A stretch of DNA of 64,000 nt from Nanobdellota archaeon (lineage in GTDB: Archaea; Nanobdellota; Nanobdellia; Woesearchaeales; GW2011-AR4), in assembly GCA_038046385.1 (NCBI GenBank), contig JBBSWH010000001.1, positions 119,211-183,210 on the forward strand. Direction: 5' to 3'. Both the position numbers and the translations under genes were made by a program. The notes below the pieces were generated by a model that did no database searches, was not told the DNA's origin, and saw only the letters and a program-made list of their open reading frames with translations. Every line of letters begins with the position of its first letter. Within the stretch, counting starts at the first letter, position 1. Below, piece by piece: positions 13,222 through 51,838 of this stretch.

Positions 13222-13770
13222 ATGAAGCAAACACAAGAAAAAAAGGAAGCTGAAGAAGTGTCAGCGGAAGCAGAAACCAAACTTGAATCAAAGATTCAAC
13301 AAGGTTTCAGCAAAGCAGAGACCACCTCCAAGGAACAGGTTGATGAAAAATCCATCAAAATAGAAGAGCTTACTGACACTTTGAAAAGGCTTCAGGCAGA
13401 ATTCGAAAATTACAGGAAAAGGATAGACAAAGAAAGAACAGAGTTTGCAAAATACGCAAACGCAAGCTTTGTTGAAAAAATGCTGCCGGTGCTTGACAGC
13501 TTCGAATTAGCATTAAAAAATACAGAAGACAAGGAAAAGTTCCTTGCAGGTGTCAAAATATTATTTGCGCAGTTTTATTCAGCATTGCAATCACAAGGGC
13601 TTAAGCCAATAAAAACAAAAGATGAAAAATTCGACCCATTTAGGCATGAAGTTTTGATGAAGGAAGCATCAGACAAGCCGGATGAAACAATACTGGAAGA
13701 GTTCCAGAAAGGGTATATGCTGAATGAGAAGGTTTTGAGGCACAGCAAGGTAAAGATTAGCGGGAAGTGA
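13222..13770 (+). CDS. grpE: Nucleotide exchange factor GrpE
   Basis: RLQAEFENYRKR, FDPFRHE and KGYMLNEKVLRHSKV motifs. Confidence 0.96.
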   Translation: MKQTQEKKEAEEVSAEAETKLESKIQQGFSKAETTSKEQVDEKSIKIEELTDTLKRLQAEFENYRKRIDKERTEFAKYANASFVEKMLPVLDSFELALKNTEDKEKFLAGVKILFAQFYSALQSQGLKPIKTKDEKFDPFRHEVLMKEASDKPDETILEEFQKGYMLNEKVLRHSKVKISGK

Positions 13771-13782
13771 TAAAATATATTT

Positions 13783-13832
13783 GAGCAAGGTCAGATGCCT
13801 TGCGAGGGTAAACATTGTCCGAAGGACGGAAA
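13783..13832 (+). other. Two-hairpin structured element (copy 1), followed by an A-rich spacer
   Basis: GA-GCAAGGT...GCCTTGC-GAG...TTGTCCGAAGGACGGAAA; second copy at 49876-49925. Confidence 0.7.
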
Positions 13833-13977
13833 AATCAAATTACAAAAACAATAATAAAACACAATAACAAAAAACGCATTGACAAATAACATCAACAAAA
13901 AATCAATTAAAATAAATTCAAATAATAAAATTATCAAATCAAATAAAAACAAATCATTAAACAAAATTTAAAAAATA

Positions 13978-14496
13978 ATGATTACCAAAAACACGCCCTT
14001 AAAAGATGTGTTGAAGCTTGCGCCAGCGTGCAAGTGCGACTTTTGCAATCATGGCTGCAAAGTCGGAAGCGGAATGCTCGCAATGGACGATGCAAAAAAA
14101 CTTGCAGAGTTCATGGGCATAAGCGAAGATGAACTGAAAAAAAATCATCTCGAAGAAGTTGAATTGTTCAACAAAAAGATGCTGCGTCCAAAGCAGCAAA
14201 GAAATGGAAAACCGTATGGACAATGCACGTTTTACGACGATGCAAAAGGATGCACCGTTCATGAAGCAAAACCATTGCAGTGCAAAATTGCAATGGGCTG
14301 CAAAGATTATGGAGAAGAATTAATGACGTGGTTCACAGTCAACTATGTTGTTGATGCAAATGACGCGGAAAGCGTGAGGCAATACGCACAGTTCATTAAA
14401 AGCGGCGGCAAGATGATACCTGGCGCAGAATTGGAAAAATTGGTGCCGGACAAAAACAAATTAAGAAAAATATTGAGCTATGAAATATTAAAATAA
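13978..14496 (+). CDS. YkgJ/CxxCxxCC-type Zn/Fe-chelating protein
   Basis: CKCDFCNHGC and CTFYD...CTVHEAKPLQC motifs. Confidence 0.8.
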   Translation: MITKNTPLKDVLKLAPACKCDFCNHGCKVGSGMLAMDDAKKLAEFMGISEDELKKNHLEEVELFNKKMLRPKQQRNGKPYGQCTFYDDAKGCTVHEAKPLQCKIAMGCKDYGEELMTWFTVNYVVDANDAESVRQYAQFIKSGGKMIPGAELEKLVPDKNKLRKILSYEILK

Positions 14497-14645
14497 CGCA
14501 ATGACGAAAACGCATTAACTAATAACATTTAAAAAAAATAATTCAATAAAAAAATATCCATTGATAAAAATAAATTAAAATAAGGTATAATCAAAATCAC
14601 AATAATAAAAAATTAAAAAACAAAATCACAGTGGAGGAAAACAAA

Positions 14646-16520
14646 ATGGCAGCAGAAAAAATAATTGGAATTGATTTAGGAACAAGCAACAGCGCAGCTT
14701 CGGTTCTACAGGGCGGAAAGCCGACAATAATACCTAGCGCAGAAGGAACAACAGCATACGGGAAAGCATTCCCGAGCGTAGTCGCATTTACAAAAGACGG
14801 GCAGGTTTTAGTCGGAGAGCCGGCAAGAAGACAAGCCGTGTCAAACCCGGAAAACACAATAATGGCCGCTAAAAGAAAAATGGGAACATCCCATAAATTC
14901 AACATAAGCGGAAAAGAATACACTGCTCAGCAGATTTCTGCATTCATACTTCAGAAAATAAAGAAAGATGCAGAAGAATTCTTAGGGGAAAAAATCAACA
15001 AAGCAGTCATCACAGTCCCTGCTTACTTTGACGACAATCAACGACAGGCAACCAAAGACGCAGGAGAAATTGCAGGATTGGAAGTTGTAAGGATAGTCAA
15101 CGAGCCGACTGCAGCATCAATGGCGTATGGTTTGGATAAGCAGACACAGGACATGAAGATTTTAGTATTTGATTTAGGAGGCGGAACGCTTGACGTAACA
15201 ATAATGGAGTTTGGCGGCGGAGTTTTCCAGGTATTATCGACATCCGGTGATACACAACTGGGTGGAACCGACATGGACCAGGCAATGATAGAATACCTGA
15301 CTTCAGAGTTTAAAAAAACAGAAGGAATTGATTTATCCAAGGACAAGACTGCGATGCAGAGAATAAGAGAAGGCGCAGAAAAGGCAAAAATAGAATTGTC
15401 TACAATATTTGAAACAGAGATTAATCTGCCTTTCATAACTGCAACAAACGACGGGCCAAAGCACCTGTCAATGAAGCTGACAAGGGCAAAACTGGAACAG
15501 CTTATTGACCCAATCATAAAGAAGTGCAAGCACCCGATGGAGCAGGCAATGAAAGACGCAAAACTTTCTCCGAACCAAGTCAGCAAAATTATACTTGTCG
15601 GAGGGCCAACAAGAATGCCTATTGTCAGAAAGTTTGTGGAAGATTTCACAGGCAAGCAGGCTGAAAGAGGCGTTGATCCAATGGAGTGTGTTGCAATGGG
15701 CGCAGCTGTACAGGCTGGAGTTCTTGCAGGCGAAGTAAAAGATATACTTTTGCTTGATGTTACACCATTAAGCCTCGGAATAGAAACACTTGGCGGAGTA
15801 TTCACGAAGCTGATTGAAAGGAACACAACAGTTCCAACTAAAAAATCACAGGTGTTCAGCACAGCTGCTGACAATCAAACAGCAGTTACAATTAGGGTTG
15901 GACAGGGCGAAAGACCTATGTTTAACGATAATAAAGTACTTGGCCAGTTTGATCTTGTAGGAGTGCCTCCTGCACCAAGGGGAATCCCTCAAATTGAGGT
16001 TGGATTTGACATTGATGCAAACGGAATACTTCATGTAAACGCAAAAGATCTCGGAACAGGAAAGGAGCAGAACATAAGAATTACTGCAGCGCAGAAATTG
16101 AGCAACGAGGAAATTGAAAGCATGAAGAAGCAGGCTGAAGAGTTTGCAGAAGTTGACAATAAGAAAAAAGAAGAGATAGAAACAATCAACAATGCAGACA
16201 CACTAGTCTACACGACTGAAAGGCTGTTCAAGGATTTAGAAGGCAAAGTTCCGGAAAAAGAAATTGCTGAAATCAAAGGCAAGATAATGGAGCTGAAAGA
16301 GCTGATGAAGCCTGCAGAAAAAGACGTTGCTTCAATCAAGAAGAAAACTGACGAAATCAACGAGCTTGTGCAGAAAATGTCAACCGAGCTTTACCAGAAA
16401 GCAGGCGCGCAGCATCAGCACGGACAGCCGGGGCAGGAAGATGCACAATCCGGCCCAAAGGATGATAATGTGGTCGATGCCGATTACGAAGTCAAGGACG
16501 ACAAAAAGGGCAAGGAATAA
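14646..16520 (+). CDS. dnaK: Chaperone DnaK
   Basis: [27 protein letters not shown] and DVTPLSLG motifs; ATG at 14646 follows a GGAGG Shine-Dalgarno. Confidence 0.98.
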
Positions 16521-47031: not shown

Positions 47032-47595
47032 ATGAAAGAATTAGAATTTCAAGACCTAATGACTAAGCTAATTAATGAGGGTTTAGACAACTCTAAATTT
47101 ATTTGTAAAAGAGGGGAATCGGTTTTATACGAATTAAAAGTAGATGAAGAACTTAATATTGTTGGCAACCCGAAAGACCCTAAAAGGGGGCAGGGAGCCT
47201 TTGAAACTGATGTTACAATATTTGCAATTAAAAAAAATCTGCAAATACCTTTTATAGTAATTGAAGTAAAAGAGCAGATAACCTCACATGATATAATCAC
47301 TTACAGCAATAAAGCCTCTAGGCATAAGATGGTTTATCCTTATTTAAGGTATGGTCTTGTTTCTTACGATTTGGATACAATACCCAATAGGTTTTTTAAA
47401 CATAATGAAGCGATAGATTTTTTCTTAGCTGTTAAGGAATACTCAAAAAACGAAGAAAAATTAAAAAATATTTTGTTAGAATTAATAAAGAATGAACTTA
47501 AGATTTTTGAAGAATTGCAGAAAATTCTGCATGATAAAAATAAACCAAATTTTTACCAAAGTATACCATCATTAAAAAATTTTGAACACGAATAA
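47032..47595 (+). CDS. PD-(D/E)XK nuclease-like protein inserted in the pur operon
   Basis: FETDVTIF...IVIEVK; AT-rich. Confidence 0.6.
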   Translation: MKELEFQDLMTKLINEGLDNSKFICKRGESVLYELKVDEELNIVGNPKDPKRGQGAFETDVTIFAIKKNLQIPFIVIEVKEQITSHDIITYSNKASRHKMVYPYLRYGLVSYDLDTIPNRFFKHNEAIDFFLAVKEYSKNEEKLKNILLELIKNELKIFEELQKILHDKNKPNFYQSIPSLKNFEHE

Positions 47596-47596
47596 A

Positions 47597-48415
47597 ATGC
47601 CAAACAAAAAGCCAAACATTGCGGTCGTTTACTTTCCCGGCAACAACTGCGAAGAGGAATCTTTGAAAGCAGCTCTTGCAGCAGGAATGGACGGGAAGAT
47701 TGTAAGATGGAATGAAAGAAAAGGAATTGAAAAATACGACGGATATATCATTCCGGGCGGCTGGGGATATGAAGACAGAATACGCGCAGGAGTTATCGCG
47801 GCAAAAGATCCTGTTTTTGCAATCATAAAAAAAGAGTCTGAAAAAGGAAAACCAGTTCTTGGTATTTGCAACGGCGCGCAGGCTTTGGTGGAATGCGGCA
47901 TGATTCCTGGATTAAAAAACAAAGTCGAGATGGCACTTGCGCCAAATATCAATCCTTTTGTGAGTGGATATTACTGCACATGGGTTCATTTGAAAAACAC
48001 AGAAAATCAGTCAAGATGTGCTTTCACAAAATTTACAGGAAAAGATGAAGTTATCCCGGTCCCGATTGCGCACGGAGAAGGGAGATTTACGACAAACGAC
48101 AAGGATTTGATGAAAGAACTTGTTAAAAACAAGCAGATAATCTTCAAATATTCTACTAAAGACGGTAAAATAGACAATAAGTTTCCAACAAACCCAAACG
48201 GAGCAATGCTTAACATTGCAGCAGTCTGCAACAAGAAAGGAAATGTGATGGCAATCATGCCTCATCCTGAACGTGCAACATTCATAAGGCAATTGCCCTA
48301 CATTACGAGCTTGAAAAACAACGCAGCAGGCAAGCTTGCAGAAATGGAAAAGCCGGCTCCGGCAATGAAATTATTTGATTCGATGAAGAAATATATCGAA
48401 GAGGAATTATTATAA
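47597..48415 (+). CDS. purQ: PurQ glutaminase subunit
   Basis: FPGNNC, GICNG, AHGEG and MPHPER motifs. Confidence 0.95.
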   Translation: MPNKKPNIAVVYFPGNNCEEESLKAALAAGMDGKIVRWNERKGIEKYDGYIIPGGWGYEDRIRAGVIAAKDPVFAIIKKESEKGKPVLGICNGAQALVECGMIPGLKNKVEMALAPNINPFVSGYYCTWVHLKNTENQSRCAFTKFTGKDEVIPVPIAHGEGRFTTNDKDLMKELVKNKQIIFKYSTKDGKIDNKFPTNPNGAMLNIAAVCNKKGNVMAIMPHPERATFIRQLPYITSLKNNAAGKLAEMEKPAPAMKLFDSMKKYIEEELL

Positions 48416-48441
48416 TAATGGGCGAGCTGGTTAATAAATAA

Positions 48442-49701: not shown

Positions 49702-49819
49702 AGGTCTAGTTAAGATTATTGCTTTAAAAGCCTTTCTGTTTATAACTACTAAATAGAAGCAACATATACATATTTCTTAGAAATATTTATTTGCGCATTA
49801 ATCCATAATTATTTAAATA

Positions 49820-49885
49820 AAATTATTTGACTTGATGAATAGGCATATTGAAGATGAAGCGCTATAATACTAGGCGAGCTGGTTA
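49820..49885 (+). repeat. Diverged duplicate of the purQ 3' end (48368-48433)
   Basis: Ungapped 66-bp alignment, 52/66 identical by manual count; KLFDLMNRHIEDEAL* versus KLFDSMKKYIEEELL*. Confidence 0.85.
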
Positions 49886-49925
49886 TGGTGCCAGCGAGCA
49901 CAATCTTTTGTCCGAAGGACGGAAA
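49876..49925 (+). other. Two-hairpin structured element (copy 2), followed by an A-rich spacer
   Basis: GA-GCTGGT...GCCAGC-GAG...TTGTCCGAAGGACGGAAA. Confidence 0.7.
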
Positions 49926-50066
49926 GAAAATTTCAATAAAATAAAATCACAAAAACAATAACGAAACTCAATAACGAAAAACACATTAACGAAAATTAAA
50001 TTTAAAATAACAATTATTAAAATAAATAACAATTAAAAATTAAATAAAAATATAAAATAACCTAAA

Positions 50067-50498
50067 ATGAAGACAATCGAACTCATCGTAAGCCTGAAAG
50101 TTCCTGACACGACTGCAATCACAGCGCTGCAGACTTTGCAAAAACTGGGATTTAAAATAAAATCCTTAAGAAGGGCAAACTACTACAAATTCTCAGTTGA
50201 GGGAGACTCTTCAAAATTCAAGGAGGAAATAAAAAAAGTGGACATTCTTGTCAACGCAAACAAGCACTTATGTGTTTTTTCAATGGAAAAAAGCAATGAT
50301 TCAAGAATACTTGTCAAAGACATAGATGATTCAAATGAAGCTTTGTTGTCAACTTTAAATCACAGGCTAGGAATAAAAGGCATAAAATCAATTGAAAAAG
50401 GCACTTTGTGGAGCATGGACGCAAACAAGGTTGTTGCAGAAAAAGCAGCGAAAGAATTATTAGCAAATGAGCACTATCAGGAATTCAAGGTGATGTAA
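50067..50498 (+). CDS. purS: PurS-like protein, double length (tandem domains)
   Basis: IVSLKVPD...TLQKLG...ILVNAN, followed by a second unit ending LLANEHYQEF; pur operon context. Confidence 0.7.
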   Translation: MKTIELIVSLKVPDTTAITALQTLQKLGFKIKSLRRANYYKFSVEGDSSKFKEEIKKVDILVNANKHLCVFSMEKSNDSRILVKDIDDSNEALLSTLNHRLGIKGIKSIEKGTLWSMDANKVVAEKAAKELLANEHYQEFKVM

Positions 50499-51266
50499 AT
50501 GAACAAAGTTTTGGTTATATTCGGCTCAAAGACAGACGAAAAAGTCTACAATGAAATAGTTTCAACATTAAAAAAGCTAAAAGTTCCTTATGAGCTAAGA
50601 GTCAGTTCGGCGCACAAGACTCCGGATGATGTTGAAAAAACACTTGAAAATGATTATTCCGTTGTGATTGCAGGCGCAGGACTGGCTGCGCATTTGCCGG
50701 GCGTTGTTGCAGCAAAAGTAATGCGGCCTGTAATTGGAGTGCCTTGTGAAGGAAACTACCAGGGATTGGATTCTTTGCTTTCAATTGCGCAAATGCCTCC
50801 GGGAATTCCTGTTCTTGCTGTTGGAGTCGGACAGGCAAAAACTGCTGCTGAAAACTGCGCAAAGATGATGAAAAAATATGAAGCAGTAACATTAATAGGA
50901 GATAGGGACAACGAAGCTGTAAAAAAATGTGTTGAGACATTAAAAAAGTTTGATGTCGCCTATGTCTTTGAAGACAAGCCAAATCCTGCAACAGTCAACA
51001 TCGAATTCACTTATTTTGACGAGCCTGTTGAAAAGAAAGACGAGCTTGTAATATACTGCCCATTATTGCTTTCAAAAGACGATAGGGCAGAAGCTTCAAT
51101 TAATTTTCTGAAGCATACAAACCACGGATTGTGGGTTGGACTGAATAATGGCGTTAATGCCGCAGTTGCTGCAGTTGAAATTCTAAATATGGACAACAGC
51201 TTTGAAGAGCTTCTTTCCATGTACAGAAGGGAAATGGGAAAGAAAGTTCTGGATGCAAACAAATGA
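50499..51266 (+). CDS. purE: PurE (N5-CAIR mutase/AIR carboxylase) with degenerate second PurE-like domain
   Basis: GSKTD, SAHKTP, GAGLAAHLPG, PVIGVP and QMPPGIPV motifs; C-terminal half ends NGVNAAVAAVEIL. Confidence 0.88.
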   Translation: MNKVLVIFGSKTDEKVYNEIVSTLKKLKVPYELRVSSAHKTPDDVEKTLENDYSVVIAGAGLAAHLPGVVAAKVMRPVIGVPCEGNYQGLDSLLSIAQMPPGIPVLAVGVGQAKTAAENCAKMMKKYEAVTLIGDRDNEAVKKCVETLKKFDVAYVFEDKPNPATVNIEFTYFDEPVEKKDELVIYCPLLLSKDDRAEASINFLKHTNHGLWVGLNNGVNAAVAAVEILNMDNSFEELLSMYRREMGKKVLDANK

Positions 51267-51838
51267 ATGGGACGGAGAGTAATCTGATAACTCAGATTGC
51301 AGAATGGTTTGCAAATGAAGACAACCTCGACGGACTTCAAAGACAAGCAGAGAGGATAGTCCCGGGATACGGAGAAGATGTGGTTCATCAAACTTATGCC
51401 AAAGCTTATGACTATTTAGTTAGACATCCGGATTTTGTTCTTAGAAAATCAATAAATCGGTGGGTTTATGCCTTAGCCAGGAACGCAGCATTAGATATTC
51501 TAAAACACGATAAATCTGTGAGGCCTTATCAAGATTATATTGCCTCTTTGTTTTATGGTGAAGACCCAACACCTTTTCTTGACACAACTTTAGGAGAGAC
51601 AGAAGAAGTGACTTTAGCGCGCATAGTTAATGAAGAGGTATCCAGACTGCCGCAGATTAATCGTGAAGTTATAATATTACATTATTATGAAAGAAAGGGA
51701 TACCCAGATATAGCAACATTGCTAGGCATAGGAATAAGTGCAGCAAAACAGAGGGCATTTAAAGGAAGGGGCATATTAAGCGAAGCAATTCTTTCCCGCG
51801 TTCAAAACATCCCTTATTGTTTAGAATCTGCAGCGTGA
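51263..51838 (+). CDS. Sigma-70 family ECF-type sigma factor-like protein
   Basis: Region 2 EDVVHQTYAKAY...RWVYALARNAALDILK; region 4 LPQINREVIILHYYE..GYPDIA.LLGI.ISAAKQRAFKGR. Confidence 0.8.
   Translation: MNGTESNLITQIAEWFANEDNLDGLQRQAERIVPGYGEDVVHQTYAKAYDYLVRHPDFVLRKSINRWVYALARNAALDILKHDKSVRPYQDYIASLFYGEDPTPFLDTTLGETEEVTLARIVNEEVSRLPQINREVIILHYYERKGYPDIATLLGIGISAAKQRAFKGRGILSEAILSRVQNIPYCLESAA

Follow-up and report, generated by a model that had tools for sequence, protein, structure and literature searches.

The stretch analysed here (the window) comprises 64,000 nt of contig C1 (JBBSWH010000001.1) in the assembly of a Nanobdellota archaeon (GCA_038046385.1, referred to as G000; 1.28 Mb, 85% complete, 38% GC), and it holds two complete copies and one truncated copy of a short structured repeat. 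The conserved two-hairpin unit of the repeat is called the head and the A-rich sequence 3′ of it the tail; L-numbers denote loci and G-numbers genomes. The A-rich stretch downstream of both complete copies reaches the next ATG, which belongs to a gene with a CxxCxxCC domain at copy 1 and to purS at copy 2 (Table 1).

A sequence-only reading of the window had noticed the two copies as a covarying motif recurring right after stop codons, and their sequences are exactly as it gave them: GA-GCAAGGT-CAGAT-GCCTTGC-GAG...TTGTCCGAAGGACGGAAA in copy 1, which begins 12 nt after the stop codon of grpE, and GA-GCTGGT-TATGGT-GCCAGC-GAG...TTGTCCGAAGGACGGAAA in copy 2. The last 18 nt, TTGTCCGAAGGACGGAAA, are identical in both and follow a linker of 8–9 nt, and the first stems differ in sequence and pair in both (GCAAGGT/GCCTTGC versus GCTGGT/GCCAGC). 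The similarity between the copies extends for approximately 60–70 nt into the A-rich sequence downstream, and both heads fold better than dinucleotide shuffles and than their own reverse complements. The 14-mer TGTCCGAAGGACGG alone is not significant in the window, where it has two matches and 42 of 100 shuffles reach that number; in G000 it is found nine times exactly and once with one mismatch, against a single match for the reversed control.

The reported duplication of the purQ end (Pfam GATase_5/PurQ-like) was also recovered by alignment. The two ~68-nt repeats flank a segment of 1.4 kb with a GlmU-like gene on the minus strand, and the break is located in the loop of hairpin 1. This flanking arrangement argues that copy 2 formerly lay between purQ and purS. 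The statement that both copies are located inside operons therefore does not hold for copy 2 today: its upstream neighbour is a divergent gene, because the 1.4-kb segment has been inserted between purQ and the element.

Table 1. Repeat copies in the window and the genes and duplications next to them
Feature	Position in window	Strand	Evidence and remarks
Copy 1, motif as first described	13783–13832		
Copy 1, head (divergent member)	13768–13836	+	covariance-model match G000:C1:132978-133046, 50.5 bits; fold −17.3 kcal/mol, z −3.3
Copy 1, AT box with invariant AAT and hairpin 1 with G.A/A.G flanks	GA 13783–13784; stem 13785–13791 with 13797–13803; GA 13804–13805	+	
Copy 1, hairpin 2 after linker	13816–13820 with 13824–13828; GAA loop 13821–13823	+	
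Copy 1, tail, A-rich and G-poor	13837–13977	+	ends at ATG of CxxCxxCC-domain gene 13978–14496 (Pfam)
grpE, upstream neighbour of copy 1	13222–13770	+	Pfam GrpE
dnaK, beyond CxxCxxCC-domain gene	14631–16520	+	Pfam HSP70
Copy 2, motif as first described	49876–49925		
Copy 2, head (majority type)	49860–49929	+	covariance-model match G000:C1:169070-169139, 79.4 bits; fold −22.4 kcal/mol, z −3.3
Copy 2, hairpin 1	GC-GA 49874–49877; stem 49878–49883 with 49890–49895; GA-GC 49896–49899	+	
Copy 2, hairpin 2	49904–49913 with 49917–49927; GAA loop 49914–49916	+	
Copy 2, tail, A-rich	49930–50066	+	three CAATAACGAA/CATTAACGAA words; A 0.62, G 0.04; ends at ATG of purS 50067–50498 (Pfam PurS)
Truncated third copy, AT box and GGCGAGCTGGTTA	48410–48433	+	directly 3′ of PurQ-like gene 47582–48415; partial nhmmer match C1:167620-167643
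Left copy of ~68-nt direct duplication (purQ 3′ end and first 13 nt of head)	48366–48432	+	right copy 49816–49886; alignment
NTP_transferase gene in 1.4-kb segment	48442–49701	−	Pfam; GlmU-like

Structure and covariation of the head

The structure was analysed in an alignment of 66 heads, namely 34 from G000, 31 from 29 loci of other species of the genus (congeners) and one from a metagenome contig. The conserved unit measures approximately 65–110 nt. In 5′ to 3′ order it comprises the AAT box, GGCGAG and, across a variable stem, CGAGC; an A-rich linker with TTTG at its end then leads to a second stem, whose loop is GAA, and GGA follows. Hairpin 1 has a fixed base, GC-GA-G...C-GA-GC, forming a tandem G.A internal loop, above which the distal part is free in sequence and in length, the short form having just two pairs there. 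Hairpin 2, preceded by a linker that ends in UUUG in RNA, has a free stem and a fixed loop. The variants of both hairpins are paired changes: GCTGG/CCAGC, GCCGG/CCGGC, GATGG/CCATC, GCAAGG/CCTTGC and GTTGTCGC/GCGACAAC in hairpin 1, and GTCC/GGAC, GTGC/GCAC, GCC/GGC, GTCGC/GCGAC, GTCCC/GGGAC, GTTGC/GCAAC and GTGCC/GGCAC, always closed by GAA, in hairpin 2. The unpaired or invariant parts are conserved as sequence: AAT is found 7–9 nt 5′ of GGCGAG in 65–66 of the 66 heads, GGCGAG and CGAGC in 64–65, and the linker follows the consensus A-A-N-W-T-T-T-G, with A94 present in 63 heads and TTTG in 53–58.

The covariation first noticed between two copies proved strong once more copies had been collected, with changes on both sides in 17 of 20 pairs. 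The covariation score was 0.265, compared with a shuffle mean of 0.103 (none of 500 shuffles reached the observed value) and with at most 0.097 for slid partners. As the alignment had been fitted to a covariance model, it favours structure, but the slid controls, and stem variants that are visible independently, speak for a real signal. Hairpin 1 is weak in its outer extension, where more than 50% of the cells are unpaired and only the two G-C pairs are fixed. Of the two strands, the sense strand has the more stable fold in 65 of the 66 heads, which argues that the functional form is one strand, either RNA or single-stranded DNA. A kink-turn, the binding site of L7Ae, was considered on account of the tandem G.A (GA in 64–65 of the 66 heads, on both strands) and was rejected, the loop being a symmetric 2×2 loop that lacks the 3-nt bulge of a kink-turn.

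Copy number, gene junctions and the A-rich tail

Between 35 and 38 copies were counted in G000 by means of an nhmmer profile of the head, a structural regular expression and the covariance model. An improved covariance model, used for the searches across genus, family and order, gave matches in 37 of 42 genomes of the same genus, in 12 of 27 genomes from the family's remaining genera (11 of 26 if the unpublished genome G251 is left out) and in none of 148 sampled genomes of other families of the order; within the taxonomic family there were about 700 matches in 50 of 70 genomes. The number of copies per congener varies from 0 to 58, with the maximum in G221 and no copy in five congeners, among them G231 (93% complete) and G238 (91% complete). 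An identical 26-nt core of hairpin 1 is common to 17 of 35 copies in G000. In two metagenome contigs of a sister species (~84–88% DNA identity), the element occupies three junctions that it also occupies in G000, but its stems and subtypes differ there. Taken together, these cores and stems show recent spread or homogenisation within genomes.

Allowing one mismatch, the 14-mer TGTCCGAAGGACGG yielded only control-level matches outside G000 in 200 genomes of the order. A loose motif pattern gave at least 118 chance matches in the genome contig collection; a tighter one gave 29 there, with bacterial record titles (mostly Bradyrhizobium; judged by titles alone), and 29 among metagenome contigs, two of which were true relatives (L161 and L165). 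The family had not been recognised by the sequence-only reading, and Rfam indeed found nothing but tRNA in the window at the gathering threshold. Fourteen loci holding heads, searched against Rfam 15 at E up to 5, gave two chance-level matches elsewhere and no family, and 15 loci from other species at E up to 1 gave tRNAs and chance-level matches alone. A literature search returned general papers on repetitive extragenic palindromic (REP) sequences and none joining DPANN with repetitive extragenic palindromic or Woesearchaeota with miniature inverted-repeat. One of the general papers (PMC12306157), which surveys palindromes under a loose definition and covers bacteria together with a few Euryarchaeota and Crenarchaeota, does not mention DPANN by name. 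The repeat family is undescribed. Archaeal markers stand beside its copies in G000 (TBP, A-type ATPase subunits, aIF5B and L31e, all by Pfam); small-subunit rRNA is absent from this assembly. No RNA run was listed for the locus; contigs from four DNA runs break at the repeat, and none joins across it.

All copies in G000 lie between main open reading frames (ORFs), as judged by eye. For six that a crude ORF caller had flagged as lying inside an ORF (C3:20791, C10:34959, C17:6115, C19:1000, C6:54474 and C2:25487), the ORFs were read as short ones spanning the spacer. An orientation bias is present in this genome, where 19 copies point in the same direction as both neighbours and six are antisense to both, with four in convergent and six in divergent spacers. 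Set against GC skew, 19 of the 35 copies are concordant in orientation and 16 discordant, which is uninformative. The location right after stop codons was borne out in G000: of the 23 copies with a co-directional gene on their upstream side, 16 begin no more than 40 nt past its stop codon. It was not borne out in other species, where the distance is unconstrained. There, the 31 heads comprise ten sense, eleven antisense, five convergent and three divergent ones and two of unassigned orientation. The median co-directional spacer in G000 measures ~40 nt, compared with 208 nt for spacers holding the element; the element thus fills an otherwise tight gene junction and therefore starts right after the stop codon. 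According to Pfam, the flanking genes in G000 share no function and often encode subunits of one enzyme; the pairs include E1beta/E2, AtpB/AtpD, TktN/TktC (the transketolase halves), PyrD/PyrK, two ABC ATPases, ProA/ProB, IspE/IspH, Dxs/IspG and MoxR/DUF58.

Orthologous junctions are either filled or empty. The spacer between atpB and atpD, compared at 26 loci of congeners, measures 2–65 nt in 11 of them, 162–370 nt and filled with repeats in seven, and 647–1362 nt with inserted ORFs in eight. The model finds heads at four of these junctions (G000, L330, L338 and L341), the detected copy being antisense in the last three; at L316, L330 and L338 the repeat is one half of an inverted pair. Downstream of grpE, a sense head is present at nine of 30 loci, two of them also with an antisense partner, while about ten have head-less grpE–dnaK spacers of 20–100 nt with a GGAGG Shine-Dalgarno sequence for dnaK. 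A regular-expression scan of G000 for the start of an rpl24e-like or aIF2-gamma-like gene, intended for a comparison of conserved head positions, gave no match. Most copies are single, and inverted pairs joined 5′ to 5′ occur in L252, L316, L330, L338, L385 and L398. In L161 the loop of hairpin 1 has another repeat nested in it, and this is also the loop that the 1.4-kb insertion breaks in the window; solo hairpin 2 units are found in L278 and L280, and additional hairpin modules precede the head at several loci. These comparisons show that the element is gained and lost at orthologous junctions, tolerates nesting and truncation and lies in both orientations. Filled and empty junctions, together with nesting, truncation and lone modules, thus argue for a dynamic, mosaic and selfish repeat and not for a fixed regulatory site.

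G000 has 43 A-rich, G-poor tracts, 23 of which come after a head (22 by pattern, and copy 1 of the window), and of the 65 genome-wide matches to CA[AT]T[AG]AC[GT]AA, 32 are located 3′ of a head at a distance of at most 220 nt. Where the element precedes a gene, the 100 nt upstream of that gene contain A at 0.55 and G at 0.08, compared with 0.37 and 0.16 for other gene-upstream regions. Tails have two to six runs of at least five A and mostly no such run of T; the tail of copy 1, which aligns with other tails, contains A at 0.63, G at 0.02, five such A runs and no T run in the first 150 nt after its head. In the six G000 copies lying antisense to both neighbours, the 3′ flank is poorer in A (0.29–0.47), and heads of other species lack the tail. 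The 60–150-nt A-rich, G-poor tail is thus apparently an addition of the sublineage of G000. Oligo-T tracts are termination signals in archaea, and an antisense tail would put several tracts of at least five T into operons; the sense bias of G000 would accordingly reflect selection against such terminator signals within operons.

Accompanying repeats and neighbouring features

Other small palindromic repeats accompany the element, often just 5′ of the head, and form mosaics with it: GAAAATCAATGATTTTC; AAACTTTTT..AAAAAGTTT; GTGCCATC..GATGGCAC; CCGTGCCTTCGGCAC; and GGCGCCC..GGGCGC. They were seen in G000 at C2:42430-42620, C3:20700-20790 and C10:34970-35010, and also at L161, L375, L396 and L273. 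The ORFs inserted between atpB and atpD occupy 650–1360 nt in eight of 26 species (L319, L320, L327, L329, L331, L332, L333 and L336), and at least three of them are mutually related; this junction is a hotspot of gene insertion. At L358:1783-1880 (C1 ~79040-79140 of G000), an insert of ~90 nt that duplicates the start of rpl37e beside a gene for an Sm-like protein carries the hairpin repeat GTGCTATATTTGC-TTCG-GCAAAATAGCAC, which is outside this family.

Two further structured sequences have a hairpin in common with the element. The first is a seemingly single-copy, conserved non-coding stretch of many Woesearchaeota and Nanoarchaeota with two GAAG-loop hairpins (..ctGCGAAGCAG..ATGTCCGAAGGACtg..gggag..), found at L010, L013, L015, L019, L022, L026, L028, L066, L076, L086, L093, L096, L121 and L136. 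Six of these loci gave no Rfam match at E up to 5. The stretch has the GUCC-GAAG-GAC hairpin in common with the element and may be an undescribed DPANN RNA. The other is a different multi-copy repeat in G187, a genome from another family of the order (L214, L215 and L217), with the form CCCGCCTCGC..GCGAGGCGGG-aaaaaa-GAGTCCGAAGGACGGCGG; it has two hairpins and the same terminal GUCC-GAAG-GAC.

Among the neighbouring genes, the CxxCxxCC-domain gene is an insertion between grpE and dnaK in G000 and in two congeners (L397 and L398), while in most congeners dnaK directly follows grpE. The purine operon of the window contains, between the genes for AIR carboxylase and SAICAR synthetase, an ORF of 191 aa with a Sigma70_r4_2 helix-turn-helix (51263–51835). 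The Dxs, GcpE/IspG, IspE-like GHMP kinase and LytB/IspH genes of the methylerythritol phosphate (MEP) route to isoprenoids are found at C5:95086-102619 of G000 (L295 and L296); the bacterial-type MEP pathway is unusual in archaea.

Origin and possible roles of the repeat

The sequence-only reading had placed two interpretations side by side, an undescribed cis-acting RNA and a mobile structured element of small size. Of these, the second is favoured by the wider evidence, because copy number ranges so widely among congeners, junctions are filled or empty, orientation is mixed, and inverted, nested and truncated copies occur. With moderate confidence, the family is taken to be a lineage-restricted, multi-copy, strand-specific, selfish mosaic intergenic repeat of the REP/bacterial interspersed mosaic element (BIME), BOX or hairpin-ended miniature inverted-repeat transposable element (MITE)-like kind. 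Its conserved single-strand fold would be the recognition structure for a putative mobilising or binding protein, and an element between co-transcribed genes would simply be carried passively in the mRNA, where its hairpins would probably act as REP hairpins do, as 3′-end barriers to RNA decay between cistrons.

Several points weigh against this explanation. A mobilising enzyme was not found with the models for Y1_Tnp, RVT_1, LAGLIDADG_3 and integrase, and no systematic survey of insertion sequences (IS) was made. Among 43 congeners, the distribution of the sole HUH Y1 transposase family tested does not match that of the element: Y1_Tnp is present in 23 of them, with none in G221 (58 copies), G216 (37), G201 (37) and G205 (31), and G231 has nine matches and no copy of the element. 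Neither target-site duplications nor terminal inverted repeats were detected when the flanks of the 66 copies were compared with cross-copy controls (direct matches 5.68 versus 5.41 nt, inverted matches 5.03 versus 5.35 nt), and the isolated flank repeats of L260 (14 nt) and L255 (10 nt) are low-complexity T-rich DNA. No precise pair of filled and empty sites among near-identical strains was found, and the ends of the element are thus undefined. A sense copy in all nine occupied grpE junctions and the sense bias of G000 would also fit a function at the RNA level, and the arguments from decay barriers and terminator avoidance are carried over from REP elements and from archaeal oligo-T termination. 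The reverse transcriptase RVT_1, which a SINE-like (short interspersed nuclear element) origin would call for, was not found in the 85% complete G000, and of seven loci of LAGLIDADG homing endonucleases one lies near a head, which shows no link to the element. As the usual mobilising enzymes do not fit, the family has probably spread or been homogenised by a mechanism as yet unrecognised.

Among known systems, bacterial REP sequences, their hairpin-forming doublets (REPINs) and BIMEs, as known from E. coli and Pseudomonas, stand close to the element. These are also short imperfect palindromes, intergenic and present in tens of copies, often directly after stop codons between co-transcribed genes; they occur singly or in inverted pairs, form mosaics with other hairpin modules, and have lineage-specific sequences, the paralogs of one genome resembling each other more than orthologs do. 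The REP unit, however, is one palindrome and carries a 5′ GTAG, whereas the element described here consists of two unlike hairpins with a tandem G.A loop, has no sequence similarity to REP, and resides in a DPANN archaeon. In contrast to the genes for REP-associated tyrosine transposases (RAYTs), the Y1 gene of G000 is not flanked by the repeats, and across the 43 congeners Y1/RAYT genes do not co-occur with them. Pneumococcal BOX elements and the Correia-type MITEs of Neisseria are similar in being modular and strongly folding inserts of ~60–150 nt that lie between genes and are transcribed together with them, variable in copy number among relatives and, as with the lone hairpin 2 noted above, occurring as solo modules; they differ in that the element has no detected terminal inverted repeat or target duplication, no sequence relation to them, and an A-rich tail peculiar to the sublineage of G000. 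Palindrome-associated transposable elements (PATEs) derived from IS200/IS605, which are known in archaea, have strand-specific subterminal hairpins without terminal inverted repeats or target-site duplications. The element agrees in strand specificity and in that no such repeats or duplications were detected next to it, though its own ends are undefined; its left and right hairpins are unlike each other, it has no link to a Y1 transposase, and no parent IS was found, though no systematic survey was made.

Movement of such a REP/REPIN or IS200/IS605-type element as single-stranded DNA by an HUH Y1 transposase (RAYT or TnpA) would agree with the strand-specific imperfect hairpins, the inverted pairs and the flanks without duplications or terminal repeats, and G000 possesses one intact IS200-like Y1_Tnp gene with HUH and Y motifs (L223:1423-1902; C10:41826-42305). 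That gene adjoins an ORF resembling Glu/Leu/Phe/Val dehydrogenases, and the hairpins flanking it are GC-rich, atypical for this genome and different from the element; since the Y1_Tnp family also fails to track the element and the two hairpins of the head are unlike, this route is improbable. Still less can be said for attC-like recombination sites of integrons or orphan CRISPR-repeat-like sites of Cas6, a very improbable origin. As in attC, structure is kept and sequence free, with a conserved base, an internal loop and a terminal part of variable length, the position is after gene ends, and entire genes have entered these junctions as well; in other species the element ends in ATTGAAA, and this 3′ end, GGATTGAAA, is taken by us to resemble the 8-nt handle of CRISPR RNA. 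An integron integrase (TIGR02249) was above cut-off in none of the 43 congeners, in which only Xer-like recombinases were found; the R/L core boxes GTTRRRY/RYYYAAC were not seen, the conserved columns being GGCGAG and CGAGC, and the elements lie among housekeeping genes and not in cassette arrays. Neither Cas6 (PF01881) nor a CRISPR array, sought by an 18-mer periodicity scan, was found in the 85% complete G000. The tiny CPKDGK-containing peptide that the sequence-only reading had offered as an alternative, encoded by a small gene (MVPASC..CPKDGK) from an ATG in the loop of hairpin 1, can hardly be upheld at all: an ATG-started frame does run through hairpin 2 in 50 of the 66 heads, but it is missing from the other 16, the motif occurs in seven, the peptides are unrelated in sequence and length, and the hairpin 2 variants are indels of 1–2 nt and paired substitutions that keep base pairing, not residues.

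A dedicated cis-acting mRNA element, in which the hairpins and the unstructured A-rich tail would set segmental stability, a processing site or a Shine-Dalgarno-independent start of the next cistron, would account for the strand-specific fold with its conserved U.G pairs, for the sense bias and the proximity to co-directional stop codons in G000, for the sense head at every occupied grpE junction, for the A-rich and G-poor composition upstream of the following genes, and for the lack of a Shine-Dalgarno sequence in most genes downstream of a tail (by eye). This is nevertheless rather unlikely, as five congeners have no copy while up to 58 are found in others, many species lack the element at the same essential operon junctions, 11 of the 31 heads in other species run antisense to both neighbours, as do those at three of the four occupied atpB/atpD junctions, other species lack the tail, and conserved TATA-like blocks in the tails, seen by eye, suggest that downstream genes have promoters of their own. 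Another proposal is that of independent small RNA genes, or RNA modules bound by an archaeal Sm-like protein, with hairpins flanking the single strand A-A-N-W-U-U-U-G. The small nuclear RNAs (snRNAs) of eukaryotes carry between two hairpins an Sm site with the consensus RAU4-6GR, bound by the Sm ring, and the A-rich/UUUG stretch between the two hairpins of the head may be likened to this site. The linker is conserved as sequence and not by pairing, its U.G “pairs” barely covary, a gene of the LSM family is present, an AT box with invariant AAT precedes the head, and, by eye, T4-6 tracts come immediately after several of the heads in other species. The AT box, however, lies just 7–15 nt before GGCGAG, which would be too close for the TATA box of a transcript that includes hairpin 1, as the usual spacing is ~26 nt; Sm-like proteins are present in nearly all archaea and hence do not discriminate, and a core RNA would not be expected to vary so much in copy number. 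Such an origin is accordingly given little probability, and there is only a slim chance that the heads are dispersed Sm-site-like modules on which an Sm-like protein or other RNA chaperone loads in operon transcripts or as small RNAs. If true, the heads would constitute a portable device for punctuating or stabilising polycistronic mRNAs, a mobile archaeal counterpart of snRNA Sm sites; any dedicated RNA role, whether as intercistronic decay barrier, processing site or Sm-site-like platform, would raise the interest of the family.

The covariance model can be used for masking the repeats in annotation, for explaining contig breaks in assemblies and as a lineage or strain marker. The family, well supported, structured and without an entry in Rfam, extends what is known of non-coding sequence in DPANN archaea, which is very poorly charted, and it offers a test bed for how archaeal operon transcripts handle strong hairpins and A-rich or T-rich inserts. 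On the favoured explanation, a selfish mosaic repeat, genomes of only ~1.3 Mb would carry dozens of selfish folded inserts in essential operons, including those for ATP synthase, pyruvate dehydrogenase, grpE–dnaK and the synthesis of proline, purines and isoprenoids.

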